A DNA stretch of 64,000 nucleotides from positions 224,001 through 288,000 of the forward strand of contig CBDCRI010000001.1 of NCBI GenBank assembly GCA_965220965.1, written 5' to 3'. Both the position numbers and the translations under genes were made by a program. A model generated the notes under the pieces. It did not search any database, had not been told where the DNA came from, and saw nothing but the letters and a program-made list of their open reading frames with translations. The first letter of the stretch is position 1. Every line of letters begins with the position of its first letter. This document shows positions 40,381 through 50,486 of this stretch, one piece after another. This DNA comes from Candidatus Marinacidobacterium sp. Lineage in GTDB: Bacteria; Acidobacteriota; Vicinamibacteria; Marinacidobacterales; Marinacidobacteraceae.

Positions 40381-40485
40381 CCAGCCGGCGCGGCCCGGTT
40401 CGGAGCGCGGCGCTGCTACAATGCCAGCCATGGCAGTGGACACGCCCAGCGTGGCGCCGGACGCGTTCGTCCGAAGGCGGGCGCC

Positions 40486-41253
40486 GTGAGCGGCGCCGCC
40501 CCCATCACCCTGAGGGCCGGGCTGCAGGCCGACTTCGAGGCCGTCGACGCCGTCCTGAGCGCCTTTCCGATCCGCGGCGCCCTGCTCGGCGGAGGCACCG
40601 TGCTCGCCGCCCTCTGGGACCACAGGGACTCCAGGGACCTCGACCTCTTCGTGCCGCGCGGCGTCGCTTCCGCCCTGCCGAAGGGCACGCCGTCCGCGCT
40701 CGCCGGGCGGCTTCGGGAGCGGCTCGGCGCCGAGGTGATGCGCGTCGGGGAGCGGCTCGACGAGGACGTCTGGGTGGTGTCCGCCCGGCTGCCGGGAGGG
40801 ACGCCGCTCTCGATCCACTGCCTGACCCACGACCGGCACGCCCAAGGGCCGCCGATCCATAACGGCGCGGTGCCGTCGCTCAGCGTCGCCGACATCATGC
40901 GGGGCAAGCTCGCGGGGCGGGCCGTCATCGCCCACCTGCTCGCGGGCACCAGCCACGACCGGCCGCCCATCCGCGACCTCTACGACGTGGCGGTGTGCGC
41001 GCAGCTGGCCCCGGAGGCGCTTGCGGCGGTCCTAGGGGAGATGGGCGCGGAGTACCGGGCCATGGCCGCGGCGGCCTTCCTGGCGGCGCCGCCGGACTTC
41101 CACAAGCTCGACCCCCAGCCGATCATGAACCAGAGGTTCGACGTCGACCTGCAGGGGCTGCCGCAAGCCGTGGGGAGGGCGGTCGAGGCCGGCGACCCCG
41201 GCCTGATCCCGGCCGCGGCGCGGCTGCCCAATCCGAACGGCCCGGCCCCGTGA
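40486..41253 (+). CDS. AbiEii/AbiGii-family nucleotidyltransferase (type IV TA toxin-like)
   Basis: LLGGGTVLAALWDHRDSRDLDLF, GKL, RDLYD. Confidence 0.85.
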   Translation: MSGAAPITLRAGLQADFEAVDAVLSAFPIRGALLGGGTVLAALWDHRDSRDLDLFVPRGVASALPKGTPSALAGRLRERLGAEVMRVGERLDEDVWVVSARLPGGTPLSIHCLTHDRHAQGPPIHNGAVPSLSVADIMRGKLAGRAVIAHLLAGTSHDRPPIRDLYDVAVCAQLAPEALAAVLGEMGAEYRAMAAAAFLAAPPDFHKLDPQPIMNQRFDVDLQGLPQAVGRAVEAGDPGLIPAAARLPNPNGPAP

Positions 41254-47158: not shown

Positions 47159-47908
47159 TCAGGGGGCCGGGGCCGCGCCGCGCTCGACGTGCTCGATGCG
47201 CGCCAGGGTGGTCGCCCCCTCGGGGCGCTCGCCGGCCAGGATGGCCCGCGCCAGCCGCCTGATCCGGGACAGCGCCACCGGCCGGTAGTCCAGCTGCTCG
47301 ACCGAGACGTTGACGTGCGGCGAGTCGGGCGCCTTGACGGTCCGGTGCTGGTGGCCGTGGACGTTGACGTGCCCGGCGGGGACGCGCGGCAGCGGCGCGT
47401 GGGTCCAGACCAGCGGCGGGTCGCCGGGCGAGACGAGCAGCGCCACCGTACGGTCGAACCCGCCCATGCGCGACCGGCCCAGCCCGTCCACGTCGTGGTT
47501 GCCGGCCACCAGAACCTTGGTGGCGCCGGGCGCTTGGCGCACGCTCGCCCACGTCTCGTCGCTCACCGCCGCGCCCAGGGCGAAGTCGCCGACGCAGACC
47601 ATGACCTCATCCGGCCGGACGTCCAGCCGCCAGCTCTCCCACAGCGCCGAGTCCATCTCCCCGACGCCGTCGAAGGGGCGGTCCTGGTAGCCGATGATGT
47701 TGGCGTGGCCCAGGTGCAGGTCGGACCACGCCTTGACGGCGCCGTCCGGCGCATCGAGCGTCCCCGCCCCGTGCAGCTCCAGCGCCCGGCGCATGGACGA
47801 CAGGCGCTTGCCGCCCCGGCCGAGCGCCTCCCGCAGGTCGTCGCGGTACAGCTCGGCCAGCTGCTTGGGGCGGGGCCTTGCGGGCCCCTTTCGTCGTGCC
47901 ATGGTCAT
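47159..47908 (-). CDS. Calcineurin-like metallophosphoesterase, last gene of the tRNA operon
   Basis: WSDLHLGHANII, VGDF, AGNHD, WTHAP, NVHGHQH, NVSVEQLDYRPV; GAAGGAG RBS. Confidence 0.9.
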   Translation of the reverse strand: MTMARRKGPARPRPKQLAELYRDDLREALGRGGKRLSSMRRALELHGAGTLDAPDGAVKAWSDLHLGHANIIGYQDRPFDGVGEMDSALWESWRLDVRPDEVMVCVGDFALGAAVSDETWASVRQAPGATKVLVAGNHDVDGLGRSRMGGFDRTVALLVSPGDPPLVWTHAPLPRVPAGHVNVHGHQHRTVKAPDSPHVNVSVEQLDYRPVALSRIRRLARAILAGERPEGATTLARIEHVERGAAPAP

Positions 47909-47964
47909 CGCTCCTTCGAAGGGTCGGCATTTTACAGCGCCTGCCGCGCCGGGGCGGCGGGGAA

Positions 47965-48038
47965 TGGTCGGCCCGGAAGGAATCGAACCTTCGTCAGCAG
48001 GGTAAGAGCCTGGTGCGCAGCCACTACGCCACGAGCCG
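47965..48038 (-). tRNA. tRNA-Lys(CTT), atypical
   Basis: CGGCTCG/CGGGCCG acceptor stem, loop CT-CTT-AC, GAAGG-TTCGATT-CCTTC T arm, encoded CCA. Confidence 0.8.
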
Positions 48039-48100
48039 AGTTCTCGGGTTGGTGCCTGGAGGCGGTCCCGGGCCGGCGGGCGGGGCGCCCGGGAGGGGAA

Positions 48101-48176
48101 TGGCCTGCCCAGGTGGACTCGAACCACCGACCTGCGCCTCCGCAGGGCGCCGCTCTTTCCGCTGAGCTATGGGCAG
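48101..48176 (-). tRNA. tRNA-Arg(GCG)
   Basis: Full cloverleaf; GCGCC-CTGCGGA-GGCGC; encoded CCA. Confidence 0.9.
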
Positions 48177-48193
48177 GAGGCGGGCTTGCATGG

Positions 48194-48281
48194 TGGCGGA
48201 GGCTGTGGGGATCGAACCCACACACCCTTTCGAGCATCACCGGCCTCCAACCGGCTTAGCGCGCCAGCCGTGCGAGCCTCC
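48194..48281 (-). tRNA. tRNA-Ser(GGA), atypical D arm
   Basis: GGAGGCT/AGCCTCC acceptor, G73, long variable arm, loop TT-GGA-GG; encoded CCA. Confidence 0.8.
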
Positions 48282-48331
48282 GTGGTTTCCTTCGCGGCGC
48301 CCCGCTTGCCGGGAGCGGGGCGCCGGCCGCG

Positions 48332-48419
48332 TGGCGGAGGCTGTGGGGGTCGAACCCACACGCCCTTTCGAGCATCACCGGGTTCAAGCCGGCTTAGCGC
48401 GCCAACTGTGCGAGCCTCC
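48332..48419 (-). tRNA. tRNA-Ser(TGA), atypical D arm
   Basis: Near-copy of 48194-48281 with loop CT-TGA-AC; encoded CCA. Confidence 0.8.
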
Positions 48420-48428
48420 GCGATCGAG

Positions 48429-48504
48429 TGGCCTGCCCGGGAGGACTCGAACCTCCGTCCTGCGCCTTAGAAGGGCGCTGCTCCATCCGCTGAGCCACGG
48501 GCAG
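48429..48504 (-). tRNA. tRNA-Arg(TCT)
   Basis: Full cloverleaf; GCGCC-CTTCTAA-GGCGC; paralog of the Arg(GCG) gene; encoded CCA. Confidence 0.9.
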
Positions 48505-48516
48505 TGGGAACGAAAC

Positions 48517-48603
48517 TGGCGGAGAGGGCGGGATTCGAACCCGCGCAGGCTTTCACCCTCCCGCTTAGCAAGCGGGCGCCATAAACCGCTCGGCCACCTC
48601 TCC
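48517..48603 (-). tRNA. tRNA-Ser(GCT)
   Basis: Canonical class II cloverleaf; CCCGC-TTGCTAA-GCGGG; encoded CCA. Confidence 0.9.
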
Positions 48604-48655
48604 GGTTCTTGCGCTGCCGGAGGCGCGCCCGCGACGCGGGCCGTTCCCGGCGAAT

Positions 48656-48745
48656 TGGCGGAGGCTGTAGGGATCGAACCCACACGGCCCTCTCGGGCCA
48701 TCACCCGTTTCGAGCGGGATAAGCACGCCAGCCTTGCGAGCCTCC
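48656..48745 (-). tRNA. tRNA-Ser(CGA), atypical D arm
   Basis: GGAGGCT acceptor, loop CT-CGA-AA, GGCCC-GAGA-GGGCC variable arm; encoded CCA. Confidence 0.8.
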
Positions 48746-48750
48746 TGACT

Positions 48751-48824
48751 TGGTGGAGCGACAGGGACTTGAACCCTGATCTCCTGCCTGCGACGCAGGG
48801 GTTCTCCCGTTGAACCATCGCCCC
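48751..48824 (-). tRNA. tRNA-Ala(CGC)
   Basis: G3:U70 pair, A73, loop GT-CGC-AG; encoded CCA. Confidence 0.9.
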
Positions 48825-48858
48825 GTGCGGCGCCGGCCGGACCGCCGGCGCCCGCCAC

Positions 48859-48943
48859 TGGTACAGGGAGAGGGAGTCGAACCCCCACAGCCCGAAGGCC
48901 CGTGGTTTACAGCCACGTGAGCTCGCCATTGCTCAGCCCCTGC
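48859..48943 (-). tRNA. tRNA-Tyr(GTA)
   Basis: CGTGG-CTGTAAA-CCACG; long variable arm GGCC-TTCG-GGCT; A73; encoded CCA. Confidence 0.9.
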
Positions 48944-49004
48944 GAAAGGACCGGGCGCAGGGGCTCCCCGGCGACGGGGAGCCCAGCGCCCAAGACACCA
49001 ACCC

Positions 49005-49018
49005 GATTGTGAAAGATC
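49005..49018 (-). promoter_or_regulatory. boxA-like antitermination site
   Basis: GATCTTTCACAATC versus rrn boxA GCTCTTTAACAA; lies between the leader terminator and the first tRNA. Confidence 0.5.
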
Positions 49019-49032
49019 GCTTTCCGGGGCCG

Positions 49033-49074
49033 AAAACGAAGAAGCCCCGGAGGTTTTGAACCTGCCAGGGCTTC
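49033..49074 (-). terminator. Intrinsic terminator (attenuator) in the tRNA operon leader
   Basis: GAAGCCCTGG-C-AGGTT-CAA-AACCT-CCGGGGCTTC followed by TTCGTTTT. Confidence 0.8.
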
Positions 49075-49143
49075 GGAGGGGTACTTGTGTGCTCCGTCTG
49101 TCAGGCTCAAGGCCTTCCAGACGCAGTTCGCAGCTGGAACGGC

Positions 49144-49224
49144 CTACACGGCAACGCCGCGGGAACGCTTTCTTGAAGCGCCCGCTTGCCGAGGACTATA
49201 GAACCCGTTTTGCGAAGTAAGCAT
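49144..49224 (-). CDS. Putative leader peptide MLTSQNGFYSPRQAGASRKRSRGVAV
   Basis: ATG 9 nt after TATAAT (near-leaderless); stop overlaps hairpin 49110-49145; codons cover all nine array tRNAs. Confidence 0.65.
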   Translation of the reverse strand: MLTSQNGFYSPRQAGASRKRSRGVAV

Positions 49225-49233
49225 GATGGCTGA

Positions 49234-49263
49234 ATTATACCCCATTGGCCGAAGTCGGGGCAA
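49234..49263 (-). promoter_or_regulatory. Sigma70-type promoter of the tRNA operon
   Basis: TTGCCC-N18-TATAAT. Confidence 0.7.
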
Positions 49264-49358
49264 ATCGAAGTCTTGTCCAACGAGAAGTGAGCCTGAAGCA
49301 AGGGATGGTTTCCAGCGTGAAGCGAGCCCAGCCAGCGGGCTCCACTCTGCTCGGCGGT

Positions 49359-50486
49359 TCAGGCGTCGGGGGCATCGGCCAGCCGCTGAACTGCCGCGGA
49401 GTAGAATTCGGGAACGACCTCCGCACTGCGACACGCCCGATCAAGGCGAAGCGAGCACACCGCCGCTGGACACAGGCCGCCGAAGGGTTCCCAAACCGCG
49501 TCGCCGGGGTCAGTGGTCGCACTGATCGACCTCTCCACGAATTCCAGCGGCTTTTGGCTGCCGTGCAGGCTCTTGTACTTCCACCGCATTCCCTGACGCT
49601 CCCCGTTGATCCGTTCCTTGCCGGCCACCTGTGACTTGCGCCACACGTTGGTGACCCCGGCGGAGCAGCGGAACTTTGCGCGCATGCGGGACCATTGCTT
49701 GGCCGTTGTCGGCTGCTTGCCGTCTTGGCTGAAATAGGGTTTGCCGGCGGAGTGTCCGTGCTTGTTGGCGTAGTCAACGAGCCGTGCGAACGCCTCCGGC
49801 GGTGGGTAGTACCAGAGGTGATCGGCGGTTAGGTACTTTCGCGTGGCGGCATTGGCGACGCCGCAGGCATCGTTGGCCAAGCGCAAGGGCAGCCCGGCGC
49901 GGCGCCACTCGTGGCGGAGCCACTCCTGCATGGTCAGCGGCTTGCCGGACTCGGACGTGAAGCTCGCGGCCTTGACGTACTGGGCGCACACTTCCGTCAC
50001 CACGGGGAATTTCCGAAGCGTGCGGGTGTTGGCATTGCCAGCGATGTGGCCCAAGCCCTTGTCCCAGATGTGGCAGCTTCGGTACTCCCAGCCGTGCTCG
50101 GCCAGCAGGGGGTGAACGGTGGCCCAGCCGAGCTCGGAGTTCCAGAACCACAGCGTCGTCTCAGGCGTTGACCGCCTGGCCCAAGCCTCGACGTGAGGGC
50201 GGTACCAGTCAACGAGGCCATGGGCGGAGTGCAGGTCCCCCGGGAATCCGCTCAGGCCGCACGGCCCGTCCGCGATGATGCATGTCGGCGCCGGCCACTG
50301 TCCGTAGAGGGACTCCGCAGGACCAAAGTGAATCGTTGAAGCGGCTCGCTGGAAGGACTGGGGGTCAATCCACGCGGATGACGAAGCGTCCTCCATGCCG
50401 GTCGGCGCCGCATTCGTGCCGATTGGGGGGAATGGAGCTTGTGGTTCCGGAAACGGCGACCCTTGGCTGTCCGATTCACGCATCAT
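49359..50486 (-). CDS. Beta-class N4/N6 DNA methyltransferase-family protein
   Basis: IIADGPCG (motif IV variant), HIWDKG, HGSQKPL, VWEPFGG; lower GC. Confidence 0.8.
   Translation of the reverse strand: MMRESDSQGSPFPEPQAPFPPIGTNAAPTGMEDASSSAWIDPQSFQRAASTIHFGPAESLYGQWPAPTCIIADGPCGLSGFPGDLHSAHGLVDWYRPHVEAWARRSTPETTLWFWNSELGWATVHPLLAEHGWEYRSCHIWDKGLGHIAGNANTRTLRKFPVVTEVCAQYVKAASFTSESGKPLTMQEWLRHEWRRAGLPLRLANDACGVANAATRKYLTADHLWYYPPPEAFARLVDYANKHGHSAGKPYFSQDGKQPTTAKQWSRMRAKFRCSAGVTNVWRKSQVAGKERINGERQGMRWKYKSLHGSQKPLEFVERSISATTDPGDAVWEPFGGLCPAAVCSLRLDRACRSAEVVPEFYSAAVQRLADAPDA

Follow-up and report, generated by a model that had tools for sequence, protein, structure and literature searches.

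The subject of this analysis is an array of nine tRNA genes, together with the leader preceding it, in a 64,000-nucleotide stretch of the genome of Candidatus (Ca.) Marinacidobacterium sp. (assembly GCA_965220965.1, contig CBDCRI010000001.1, positions 224,001 to 288,000), hereafter called the window. The host genome comprises 3.25 Mb with 71-73% GC, and the window is part of its second contig, of 363 kb. A reading made from the DNA letters (the sequence-only reading) had proposed that a short open reading frame (ORF) in this leader senses depletion of the tRNAs encoded downstream. The promoter, the ORF, the hairpin over its stop codon, the terminator hairpin, the boxA-like site and the nine tRNAs that it had listed were all recovered at the same positions with ARAGORN, a promoter scan and RNA folding. 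Modelling of the transcript and comparison with related leaders make it likely that this region controls a supernumerary tRNA array of horizontal origin by ribosome-dependent attenuation of transcription. The comparison also supports the view that the window leader belongs, as a short and divergent member, to a family of predicted attenuators upstream of supernumerary tRNA arrays that had not been described before. The elements of the leader and the array are listed below in the direction of transcription.

49328-49311 and 49293-49276, minus strand: two 18-nt direct repeats, just upstream of the -35 box
49263..49234, minus strand: sigma-70-like promoter, TTGCCC, 18-nt spacer, TATAAT (10/12 matches)
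49224-49144, minus strand: near-leaderless leader ORF, 26 codons plus TAG, with its ATG 9 nt past the -10 box
49134-49145, minus strand: segment 1, which overlaps the stop codon, pairs with segment 2 and lies under a ribosome at the stop
49110-49122, minus strand: segment 2, with either segment 1 or segment 3 as partner
49092-49110, minus strand: segment 3, which pairs with segment 2, or with the terminator 5' arm and loop (antiterminator)
49041-49074, minus strand: terminator hairpin of segments 4 and 5, 34 nt, -23.4 kcal/mol
49031-49040, minus strand: interrupted T-run TTCGTTTTCG, directly after the terminator hairpin
49024-49030, minus strand: segment 6, GCCCCGG, complementary to the terminator 3' arm
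49007-49018, minus strand: boxA-like site GATCTTTCACAA, 10/12 identical to the family consensus GCTCTTTAACAA
48994-49000, minus strand: TGGTGTC, boxC-like, aligned with the conserved TGTGT block of the family (alignments A2 and A3)
48953-48991, minus strand: long GC-rich hairpin right before the first tRNA, -36.5 kcal/mol
47965-48943, minus strand: nine tRNA genes (ARAGORN) with, in order, the anticodons Tyr GTA, Ala CGC, Ser CGA, Ser GCT, Arg TCT, Ser TGA, Ser GGA, Arg GCG and Lys CTT

The promoter is the sole sigma-70-like site between positions 47500 and 50000, where shuffled sequences average 0.1 sites. No Shine-Dalgarno sequence is present before the ORF, whose translation is MLTSQNGFYSPRQAGASRKRSRGVAV. 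The direct repeats upstream of the -35 box occur as a pair only at this site in the genome (fuzzy motif search) and could possibly form a regulator binding site. The 60-bp repeat block is 81% identical in a relative (genome G024, L002 1501-1560), where it is followed by unrelated sequence and no tRNAs. The same block was also seen on other contigs of run X1.

The 285-nt leader folds far better than shuffled versions of itself (z = -5.46). The hairpin that begins inside the stop codon (helix 1:2) has a predicted energy of -20.6 kcal/mol, compared with -14.1 kcal/mol for helix 2:3 when segment 1 is masked and -19.7 kcal/mol for helix 3:4. The terminator hairpin is followed by the interrupted T-run TTCGTTTT. 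A simple scan for intrinsic terminators listed no site; it considers only loops of 3-8 bases and requires five or more T among the eight bases that begin 0-2 bases past the stem. Segments 5 and 6 can form a further helix (49024-49050, minus strand; -15.7 kcal/mol) that is kept in the family, where loci L050 and L067 show a CCAGGG/CCCTGG swap (alignment A2, columns about 112-142); this pairing cannot prevent termination. The family counterpart of the hairpin before the first tRNA shows many compensatory changes.

Related leaders and their open reading frame

Relatives were retrieved by several routes. A 5' motif common to three unusual serine tRNAs of the array (see below) was found in three viral and ten genome contigs, and all 13 carry tRNA arrays, of 4-25 genes. 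Reading of the regions upstream of the arrays at L009/L013 and L014-L016 showed the same core of hairpin, T-run, CCCCGG, boxA and TGTGT as in the window, and a pattern search located the hairpin/T-run/boxA core in six of the 13 array loci. A boxA search with at most one mismatch gave the core in seven loci from metagenome-assembled genomes (MAGs), namely L009, L010 and L012-L016, which are labelled Gammaproteobacteria, Pseudomonadota, Ca. Rariloculaceae and Ca. Foliamicus. A pattern based on the core matched 27 metagenome contigs; tRNAs lie directly downstream in 23 of these, and the remaining four hold at most 142 nt of downstream sequence. The arrays of relatives with the same leader comprise 20-25 tRNAs, except for one with three. 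In two host genomes, with 66 and 64 tRNA matches, about 22 of the matches fall in each array; therefore, these arrays are supernumerary. By BLAST, each host genome holds one leader copy, so that no other leader there is a near match to it.

Two loci are arranged differently. At L012/L075 (G443:C2:69400-79400), a full-length leader is followed by an 800-nt gap and then by three tRNAs (Gly ACC, Ser CGA and Met). At L049 (415-634), two leader copies overlap on opposite strands, representing either an inverted duplication or an assembly artefact. L049 was left out of the ORF count, as were L053 and L056, which have too little upstream sequence. The family comprises roughly 5-8 deep lineages as judged by eye; clustering of the peptides at 50% identity merged everything.

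Searches closer to the window genome and in mobile elements were mostly negative. BLAST of the leader against 40 relatives gave just two short side matches, and a covariance model of the leader (R1) found no further copy in 60 relatives of the window genome and none in eight other array loci (L006-L008, L011, L017-L020). In 400 genomes of the phylum (a sample that took in G089, G064 and G192), only single tRNAs were matched at E up to 1e-8, a threshold at which weak leader matches could have been missed. In the phage and plasmid collections, the window region was matched at single tRNAs only and the L058 leader nowhere. No match was obtained for a tRNA-Tyr motif in the viral contigs, for the first leader pattern in the metagenome or viral contigs, or for the L014 leader in 150 genomes of its class. 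Contigs of two other runs carry leader copies identical to that of the window, with no natural variants among them.

The sequence-only reading had made conservation of the leader ORF a test of its proposal, and positional homologues exist in all 31 relatives with enough upstream sequence. In each of the 31, an ATG 8-10 nt past the -10 box opens a frame of 45-59 codons that closes immediately next to segment 1, 35-38 nt ahead of segment 3. Of 29 distinct upstream regions, 28 share one promoter layout: the -35 box, mostly TTGACA, is separated by 16-18 nt from the -10 box, mostly TATACT, and the ATG follows after another 8-10 nt. The start and stop positions are constant, with lengths of 45, 48 and 54-59 codons. 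Over 29 distinct ORF spans, no stop codon occurs in the ORF frame, compared with 82 and 83 in the other two frames. The encoded peptide appears to be nearly free to vary. In a clade of ten members, variable columns are distributed 21/21/27 over the three codon positions, and pairwise codon differences number 219 synonymous and 505 non-synonymous, where 24% synonymous would be expected by chance. The peptides of the family have no Pfam or NCBIfam match at curated cut-offs, and that of the window is half their length and cannot be aligned with them. An open frame with fixed ends and a near-free peptide fits the act of translation being what matters. Thus, the family ORF appears to be selected to stay open, and the window ORF is best regarded as a copy of this conserved promoter-abutting ORF rather than as a chance frame.

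The family peptides are rich in different amino acids. Among the 31 non-window peptides (45-59 residues), 15 contain 20 distinct amino acids, 11 contain 19, four contain 18 and one contains 17; among 28 distinct sequences, 12 have all 20. Null windows (random stop-free, likely genes, same loci) average 15.5-16.6 distinct amino acids and attain all 20 in 0.3-2.3% of cases. Lineages whose peptides can barely be aligned each reach 19-20, although the significance is below what the raw counts imply because of the kinship of the members. The leader peptides of several lineages (L014-L016, L047-L073) end in P-[MI]-x-stop, as in GEPMT-stop and GEPMR-stop, with highly conserved nucleotides; this ending may be a termination-pausing motif or reflect a constraint on the RNA.

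Alternative helices and codon content

The alignment of 28 leaders defines five segments that can form two mutually exclusive sets of helices. In the terminated state (2:3 plus 4:5), 87.6% of the alignment cells are paired, compared with 29-58% in controls with a slid register; the antiterminated state (1:2 plus 3:4) has 82.4% paired, compared with 27-61%. Among the individual helices, the terminator helix 4:5 has 95.7% of cells paired with two pairs changed on both sides, helix 2:3 has 85.7% with four such pairs, and helix 1:2 has 79.4% with three. The T-run of most relatives consists of 6-8 T, mostly seven, and that of the L014 group of six T, G and three T. A pairing of GGGCGCTTC with GAAGCCC in the terminator 5' strand, as the sequence-only reading had it, appears in none of the printed minimum-energy structures; the predicted partner in the antiterminator is instead 49110-49092.

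Folding with ribosome footprints, a check suggested by the same reading, was carried out on nascent transcripts cut at the terminator loop, before the 3' arm, with a 28-nt footprint masked. Thirty distinct leaders were folded, including that of the window. The mean probability of the 3:4 core, P(3:4), is 0.86 with no ribosome, 0.00 with a ribosome at the stop codon (at most 0.07 in every one of the 30), and 0.80 and 0.87 for stalls at 10 and 20 codons ahead of the stop, respectively. The difference between the 10-codon stall and the stop position exceeds 0.3 in 26 of the 30 leaders. A codon-by-codon scan of the window leader gives P(3:4) of at least 0.98 when the A-site is at codons 2-22, followed by 0.68, 0.46, 0.02 and 0.01 at codons 24-27, the last being the stop. 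All ten array-cognate codons of the window ORF lie inside this antitermination zone, and its last four sense codons are non-cognate. Since nascent folding ties the antiterminator to the position of the ribosome, a polarity can be predicted that the sequence-only reading had left undetermined: stalled or absent translation should lead to read-through and turn the array on, and a ribosome at the stop should turn it off. The claim of ribosome-dependent attenuation is thereby sustained on computational grounds, by an ORF conserved in about 30 leaders, a terminator with compensatory changes and the antiterminator switch.

The window ORF has 24 distinct codons among its 26 and no tandem repeats. That every tRNA of the array finds a cognate codon in it is correct for all nine anticodons if G:U wobble is allowed and for seven of nine under strict Watson-Crick pairing. 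A recount agreed with the figures given before: ten of 25 sense codons are array-decoded, with the other 15 not, and codons 17-22 are six consecutive array-cognate codons, all different. A permutation-type test of the 9/9 coverage had been set beforehand. With the pairing rule of the sequence-only reading and with full wobble, respectively, the chance is 2e-5 to 9e-5 and 6e-4 to 9e-4 for composition-matched random ORFs; 9/9 coverage occurs in 0 and 7 of 3530 real short ORFs of the genome, and in 3 and 12 of 19132 GC-matched, stop-free 25-codon windows of the genome. None of 877 25-codon windows from 28 homologous leader ORFs attains it (maximum seven or eight), and these 28 ORFs, twice as long as that of the window, cover 4-8 of its nine anticodons. 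Taken alone, such estimates are not decisive, the ORF having been picked after the match was seen.

The relation between leader codons and array anticodons that had been anticipated for homologous arrays is suggested by the five complete ones. With full wobble, the ORF of each covers the following share of the anticodons in its own array: L009, 20/20 (p = 0.001); L010, 21/22 (p = 0.011); L013, 23/24 (p = 0.011); L014, 18/20 (p = 0.049); and the window, 9/9 (p = 0.001, or 0 of 3000 null windows with the rule of the sequence-only reading). L013, L009 and L010 are close kin and not independent of each other. In these five arrays, the coverage by the own ORF is bettered by no other ORF. Moreover, the two small arrays have the highest own-array codon share among 29 ORFs, with 10/25 in the window and 14/54 in L012. 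Codon tuning to the tRNAs of the array is suggestive.

The array and its genomic setting

Eight of the nine array anticodons are also present on the chromosome, and the window array is supernumerary in that it duplicates the host anticodons in these cases. The exception is Arg GCG (48101-48176, minus strand), in place of which the chromosome has ACG; Arg GCG also occurs in the arrays at L010, L011, L013 and L018. The identity of the array tRNAs to the nearest chromosomal tRNA is merely 67-78%, the leader model matches only G000 among 61 genomes, and MAGs labelled Gammaproteobacteria or Pseudomonadota carry both this leader and these types of tRNA. Therefore, the array appears to be of foreign origin and to have been acquired horizontally.

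All nine tRNA genes encode CCA, and six of them reach the gathering score of the Rfam tRNA model. The serine tRNAs with anticodons GGA, TGA and CGA (48194-48281, 48332-48419 and 48656-48745, minus strand) fall below it. These three are 82-91% identical to one another, and their best model is tRNA-Sec, at 25-34 bits and under its cut-off of 47. As read from the sequences, the Lys tRNA and both Arg tRNAs (47965-48038, 48101-48176 and 48429-48504, minus strand) have C1 paired to G72, and the Tyr tRNA (48859-48943, minus strand) has G1 opposite U72. On contigs of runs X2 and X3, a relative of the Ser TGA tRNA is joined directly to sequence resembling the terminator hairpin (window joints 48421 and 49042); thus, other arrangements of these modules exist.

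The neighbours of the array look phage-like and include a DNA methylase, DUF5131 / phrog_2045, a class II-like ribonucleotide reductase and a phrog_547 phosphoesterase. Two of the genes nearby are relevant here.

47162-47908, minus strand: phosphoesterase gene (phrog_547, E = 7.6e-34), with a weak PdeM-like match and no Pfam match
40381-41250, plus strand: AbiEii-type nucleotidyltransferase toxin domain, 7 kb from the array

The phosphoesterase gene starts 57 nt past the last tRNA on the same strand and is possibly co-transcribed with the array; a role in the repair of RNA ends is conceivable. No viral relative of it was found, and the neighbouring methylase matched two viral loci, both without tRNAs. 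Toxins related to AbiEii modify the acceptor ends of tRNAs, including serine tRNAs. If such toxins target serine tRNAs, this domain would be of interest beside an array with four of them. The host genome has Omp85 matches and no WhiB match.

Explanations considered and known systems

In the proposed mechanism, transcription would begin at the strong promoter only a few bases before the ATG, and a ribosome would load on the nascent, near-leaderless RNA. Prompt translation of the 26 codons would bring the ribosome to the stop codon, where it would cover segment 1; helix 2:3 would then pair, the terminator 4:5 would form, and transcription would end before the tRNAs. If the ribosome stalled in codons 2-22, or if none loaded, segment 1 would pair with segment 2, leaving segment 3 to take up the terminator 5' arm and loop, and RNA polymerase would read through. 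The boxA-like site past the terminator, which we take to resemble the rrn boxA, would then probably allow the polymerase to transcribe the untranslated array processively. The ORF would act as a sampler of codons: among relatives whose arrays hold 20-25 tRNAs, it represents as many as all 20 amino acids, and in the window it has a codon for each of the nine tRNAs. Translation, termination, polarity in vivo, the function of boxA and tRNA depletion as the natural trigger are what we infer from these data.

Several observations weigh against this attenuator model. The evidence is wholly computational, with translation, termination and transcription start predicted from sequence. The family members are akin, so that counts overstate their independence (roughly 5-8 deep lineages). 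The window leader was found in none of 60 relatives, and this copy is divergent: its ORF is short, its T-run is interrupted and its 2:3 helix is weaker. Helix 3:4 has no compensatory changes. Its core motifs (segment 3 and GGTTC) formed part of the retrieval pattern, and their invariance in the 27 metagenome loci is partly by construction; the core is also present in the seven MAG loci and the window, which were retrieved by other means. The predicted switch is weak in four of the 30 leaders. At equilibrium with the complete terminator, folding favours the terminator at every ribosome position, with P of at least 0.946 in the window and at least 0.89 in most relatives (0.24 for L009 without a ribosome, in a partial run). 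The switch must therefore be kinetic, and kinetic switching is usual for attenuators.

Three other explanations were compared with the attenuator model. One holds that the leader serves only for rrn-like antitermination and processing, with its hairpins, boxA and pre-tRNA stem, and that the ORF is untranslated and open as a by-product of constraints on the RNA. It would account for the boxA-like and TGTGT blocks being the most conserved parts, for conserved nucleotide blocks and hairpins with variable loops inside the ORF, and for the missing Shine-Dalgarno sequence, the transcription start being known by prediction only. It is nevertheless very unlikely, given the contrast in stop codons between the frames of the 29 distinct sequences, ORF lengths that vary between fixed start and stop positions, an amino-acid completeness far past the null, and a conserved terminator with 6-8 T upstream of boxA, which antitermination alone would not need. 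That the ORF encodes a small trans-acting protein, with the terminator merely separating two transcription units, seems extremely improbable: the C-terminal motifs common to several lineages (...SGEPMT-stop, ...GEPMR-stop, P-[MI]-x-stop) would suit a protein, but the substitution pattern is nearly neutral, the window peptide is unalignable and of half the usual length, no protein family is matched, and the stop codon always abuts segment 1.

The third explanation accepts the attenuator family as real and concerns what it senses. The window copy would be decayed or generic, its 9/9 match a coincidence, and the signal the general capacity for translation, as affected by antibiotics, starvation or shortage of ribosomes. 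In its favour, family ORFs hold amino acids absent from their arrays: all 20 amino acids occur in the L009 ORF although Val, Leu and Gln tRNAs are missing from the L009 array, and only Asn is absent from the L010 ORF, against five amino acids for the L010 array. For the large arrays, the margin of the own ORF is at most one anticodon, with ties mostly from sister loci and one from the unrelated L062 on the L014 array, and arrays truncated by contig ends give p = 0.10-0.63. The short window ORF with its 15 non-decoded codons and the interrupted T-run point the same way, as does the published long array described in the main text of PMC8421152, which answers general translational stress. A coincidence is however at odds with the rarity of 9/9 coverage, both in matched windows of the genome (3-12 of 19132) and in homologous ORFs (0 of 877), and with the leading own-array codon shares of both small arrays. 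All four helices of the window are strong and its predicted switch is as sharp as those of the relatives, which does not suggest decay. On balance, this generic sensor with a coincidental match is unlikely.

The tRNA-specific depletion sensing of the sequence-only reading is supported in part: the 9/9 match stands out, while tuning is no more than suggestive in a family whose ORFs sample nearly all amino acids and may on this account report general elongation trouble. A fuller version, in which each mobile tRNA array carries a matched depletion sensor whose codon set co-evolves with the array anticodons, so that loss of the replaceable host tRNAs turns the array on, is put forward tentatively and with somewhat less than even expectation. 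Under it, anticodon nucleases or tRNA-modifying toxins would be example causes of the loss of host tRNAs, anticodon nucleases being a presumed trigger, and the ORFs with all 20 amino acids and the 9/9 ORF of the window would be two settings of one tunable device.

If the attenuator model is true, an ORF that samples all amino acids or all array tRNAs would represent a new sensing logic for attenuation, in which failure of elongation at any codon is reported and tRNA supply is the answer. There would then be a mechanistic connection between mobile tRNA arrays and translation stress, and perhaps also a connection with the conflict in which defence systems that target tRNAs oppose mobile elements. 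The leader would also be a compact and portable regulatory part, and the model predicts the unusual outcome that loss of the start codon turns the array on.

Supernumerary, horizontally spread tRNA arrays are widespread, but their control is known in one case only, for which a promoter-level mechanism has been reported. The main text of PMC8421152 describes long tRNA arrays (L-arrays) as horizontally spread and supernumerary, and the Anabaena trn array as normally silent, induced by translational stress and regulated by direct repeats that overlap the promoter, to which the regulation is attributed. The window array is likewise supernumerary and apparently mobile, and the induction in Anabaena under impaired translation, as given there, matches the polarity predicted here (PMC8421152). 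The two direct repeats of the window are reminiscent of the Anabaena promoter repeats but sit upstream of the -35 box, and with nine genes the array is not of the anomalous length of L-arrays, which reach 43 genes (PMC8421152). The terms attenuat-, leader, terminator and boxA do not occur in the main text of that paper, nor in PMC4758250. A literature search covering main texts found no account of an attenuator or leader ORF placed ahead of a tRNA array; among the papers listed, PMC8421152 alone paired a tRNA-array term with terms of this kind ('ribosome stalling', once).

Among small upstream ORFs, similarities are found with toiL of Escherichia coli, in which the translation status of a short upstream ORF controls downstream transcription in response to many ribosome inhibitions (10.1101/682021), and with the mycobacterial polycysteine ORFs, which are short, leaderless and upstream (10.1101/834739). 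The targets are a toxin-antitoxin operon (10.1101/682021) and cysteine genes (10.1101/834739), not tRNA genes. The leader may be akin to rrn boxA leaders in having a hairpin, a boxA-like dodecamer and a TGTGT block before untranslated, structured RNA genes, but its boxA-like site lies behind a predicted regulated terminator and a translated-looking ORF. As for mode of termination control, toiL reportedly acts through Rho. T-box riboswitches also couple tRNA status to terminator read-through; however, they lack an ORF and recognise uncharged tRNA by direct binding. In the window and in four relatives, tRNA was the one Rfam family with matches at the gathering score, and a permissive scan (E up to 1) of 47900-49420 gave only chance-level matches in the leader, with no T-box.

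Another close resemblance is to the leader-peptide attenuators that precede amino-acid operons (trp, his, leu, thr, ilv), in which a short ORF, alternative helices and a terminator are combined such that a stall leads to read-through. The shared features are a short ORF near the transcript start, overlapping helices, a terminator before the genes and a choice made by the position of the ribosome; in the window, the ORF near the transcript start, the intrinsic terminator and, in silico, the exclusive antiterminator are all present. Repeated regulatory codons are not: in place of a tandem run of one such codon, many codons are sampled broadly. The multivalent ilv type is the nearest of these attenuators. 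The leader also differs from them in preceding tRNA genes rather than biosynthetic genes, in its nearly leaderless start and in the boxA-like site past the terminator. In contrast to the trp type, it has five segments, so that untranslated RNA is predicted to be read through instead of being super-attenuated.

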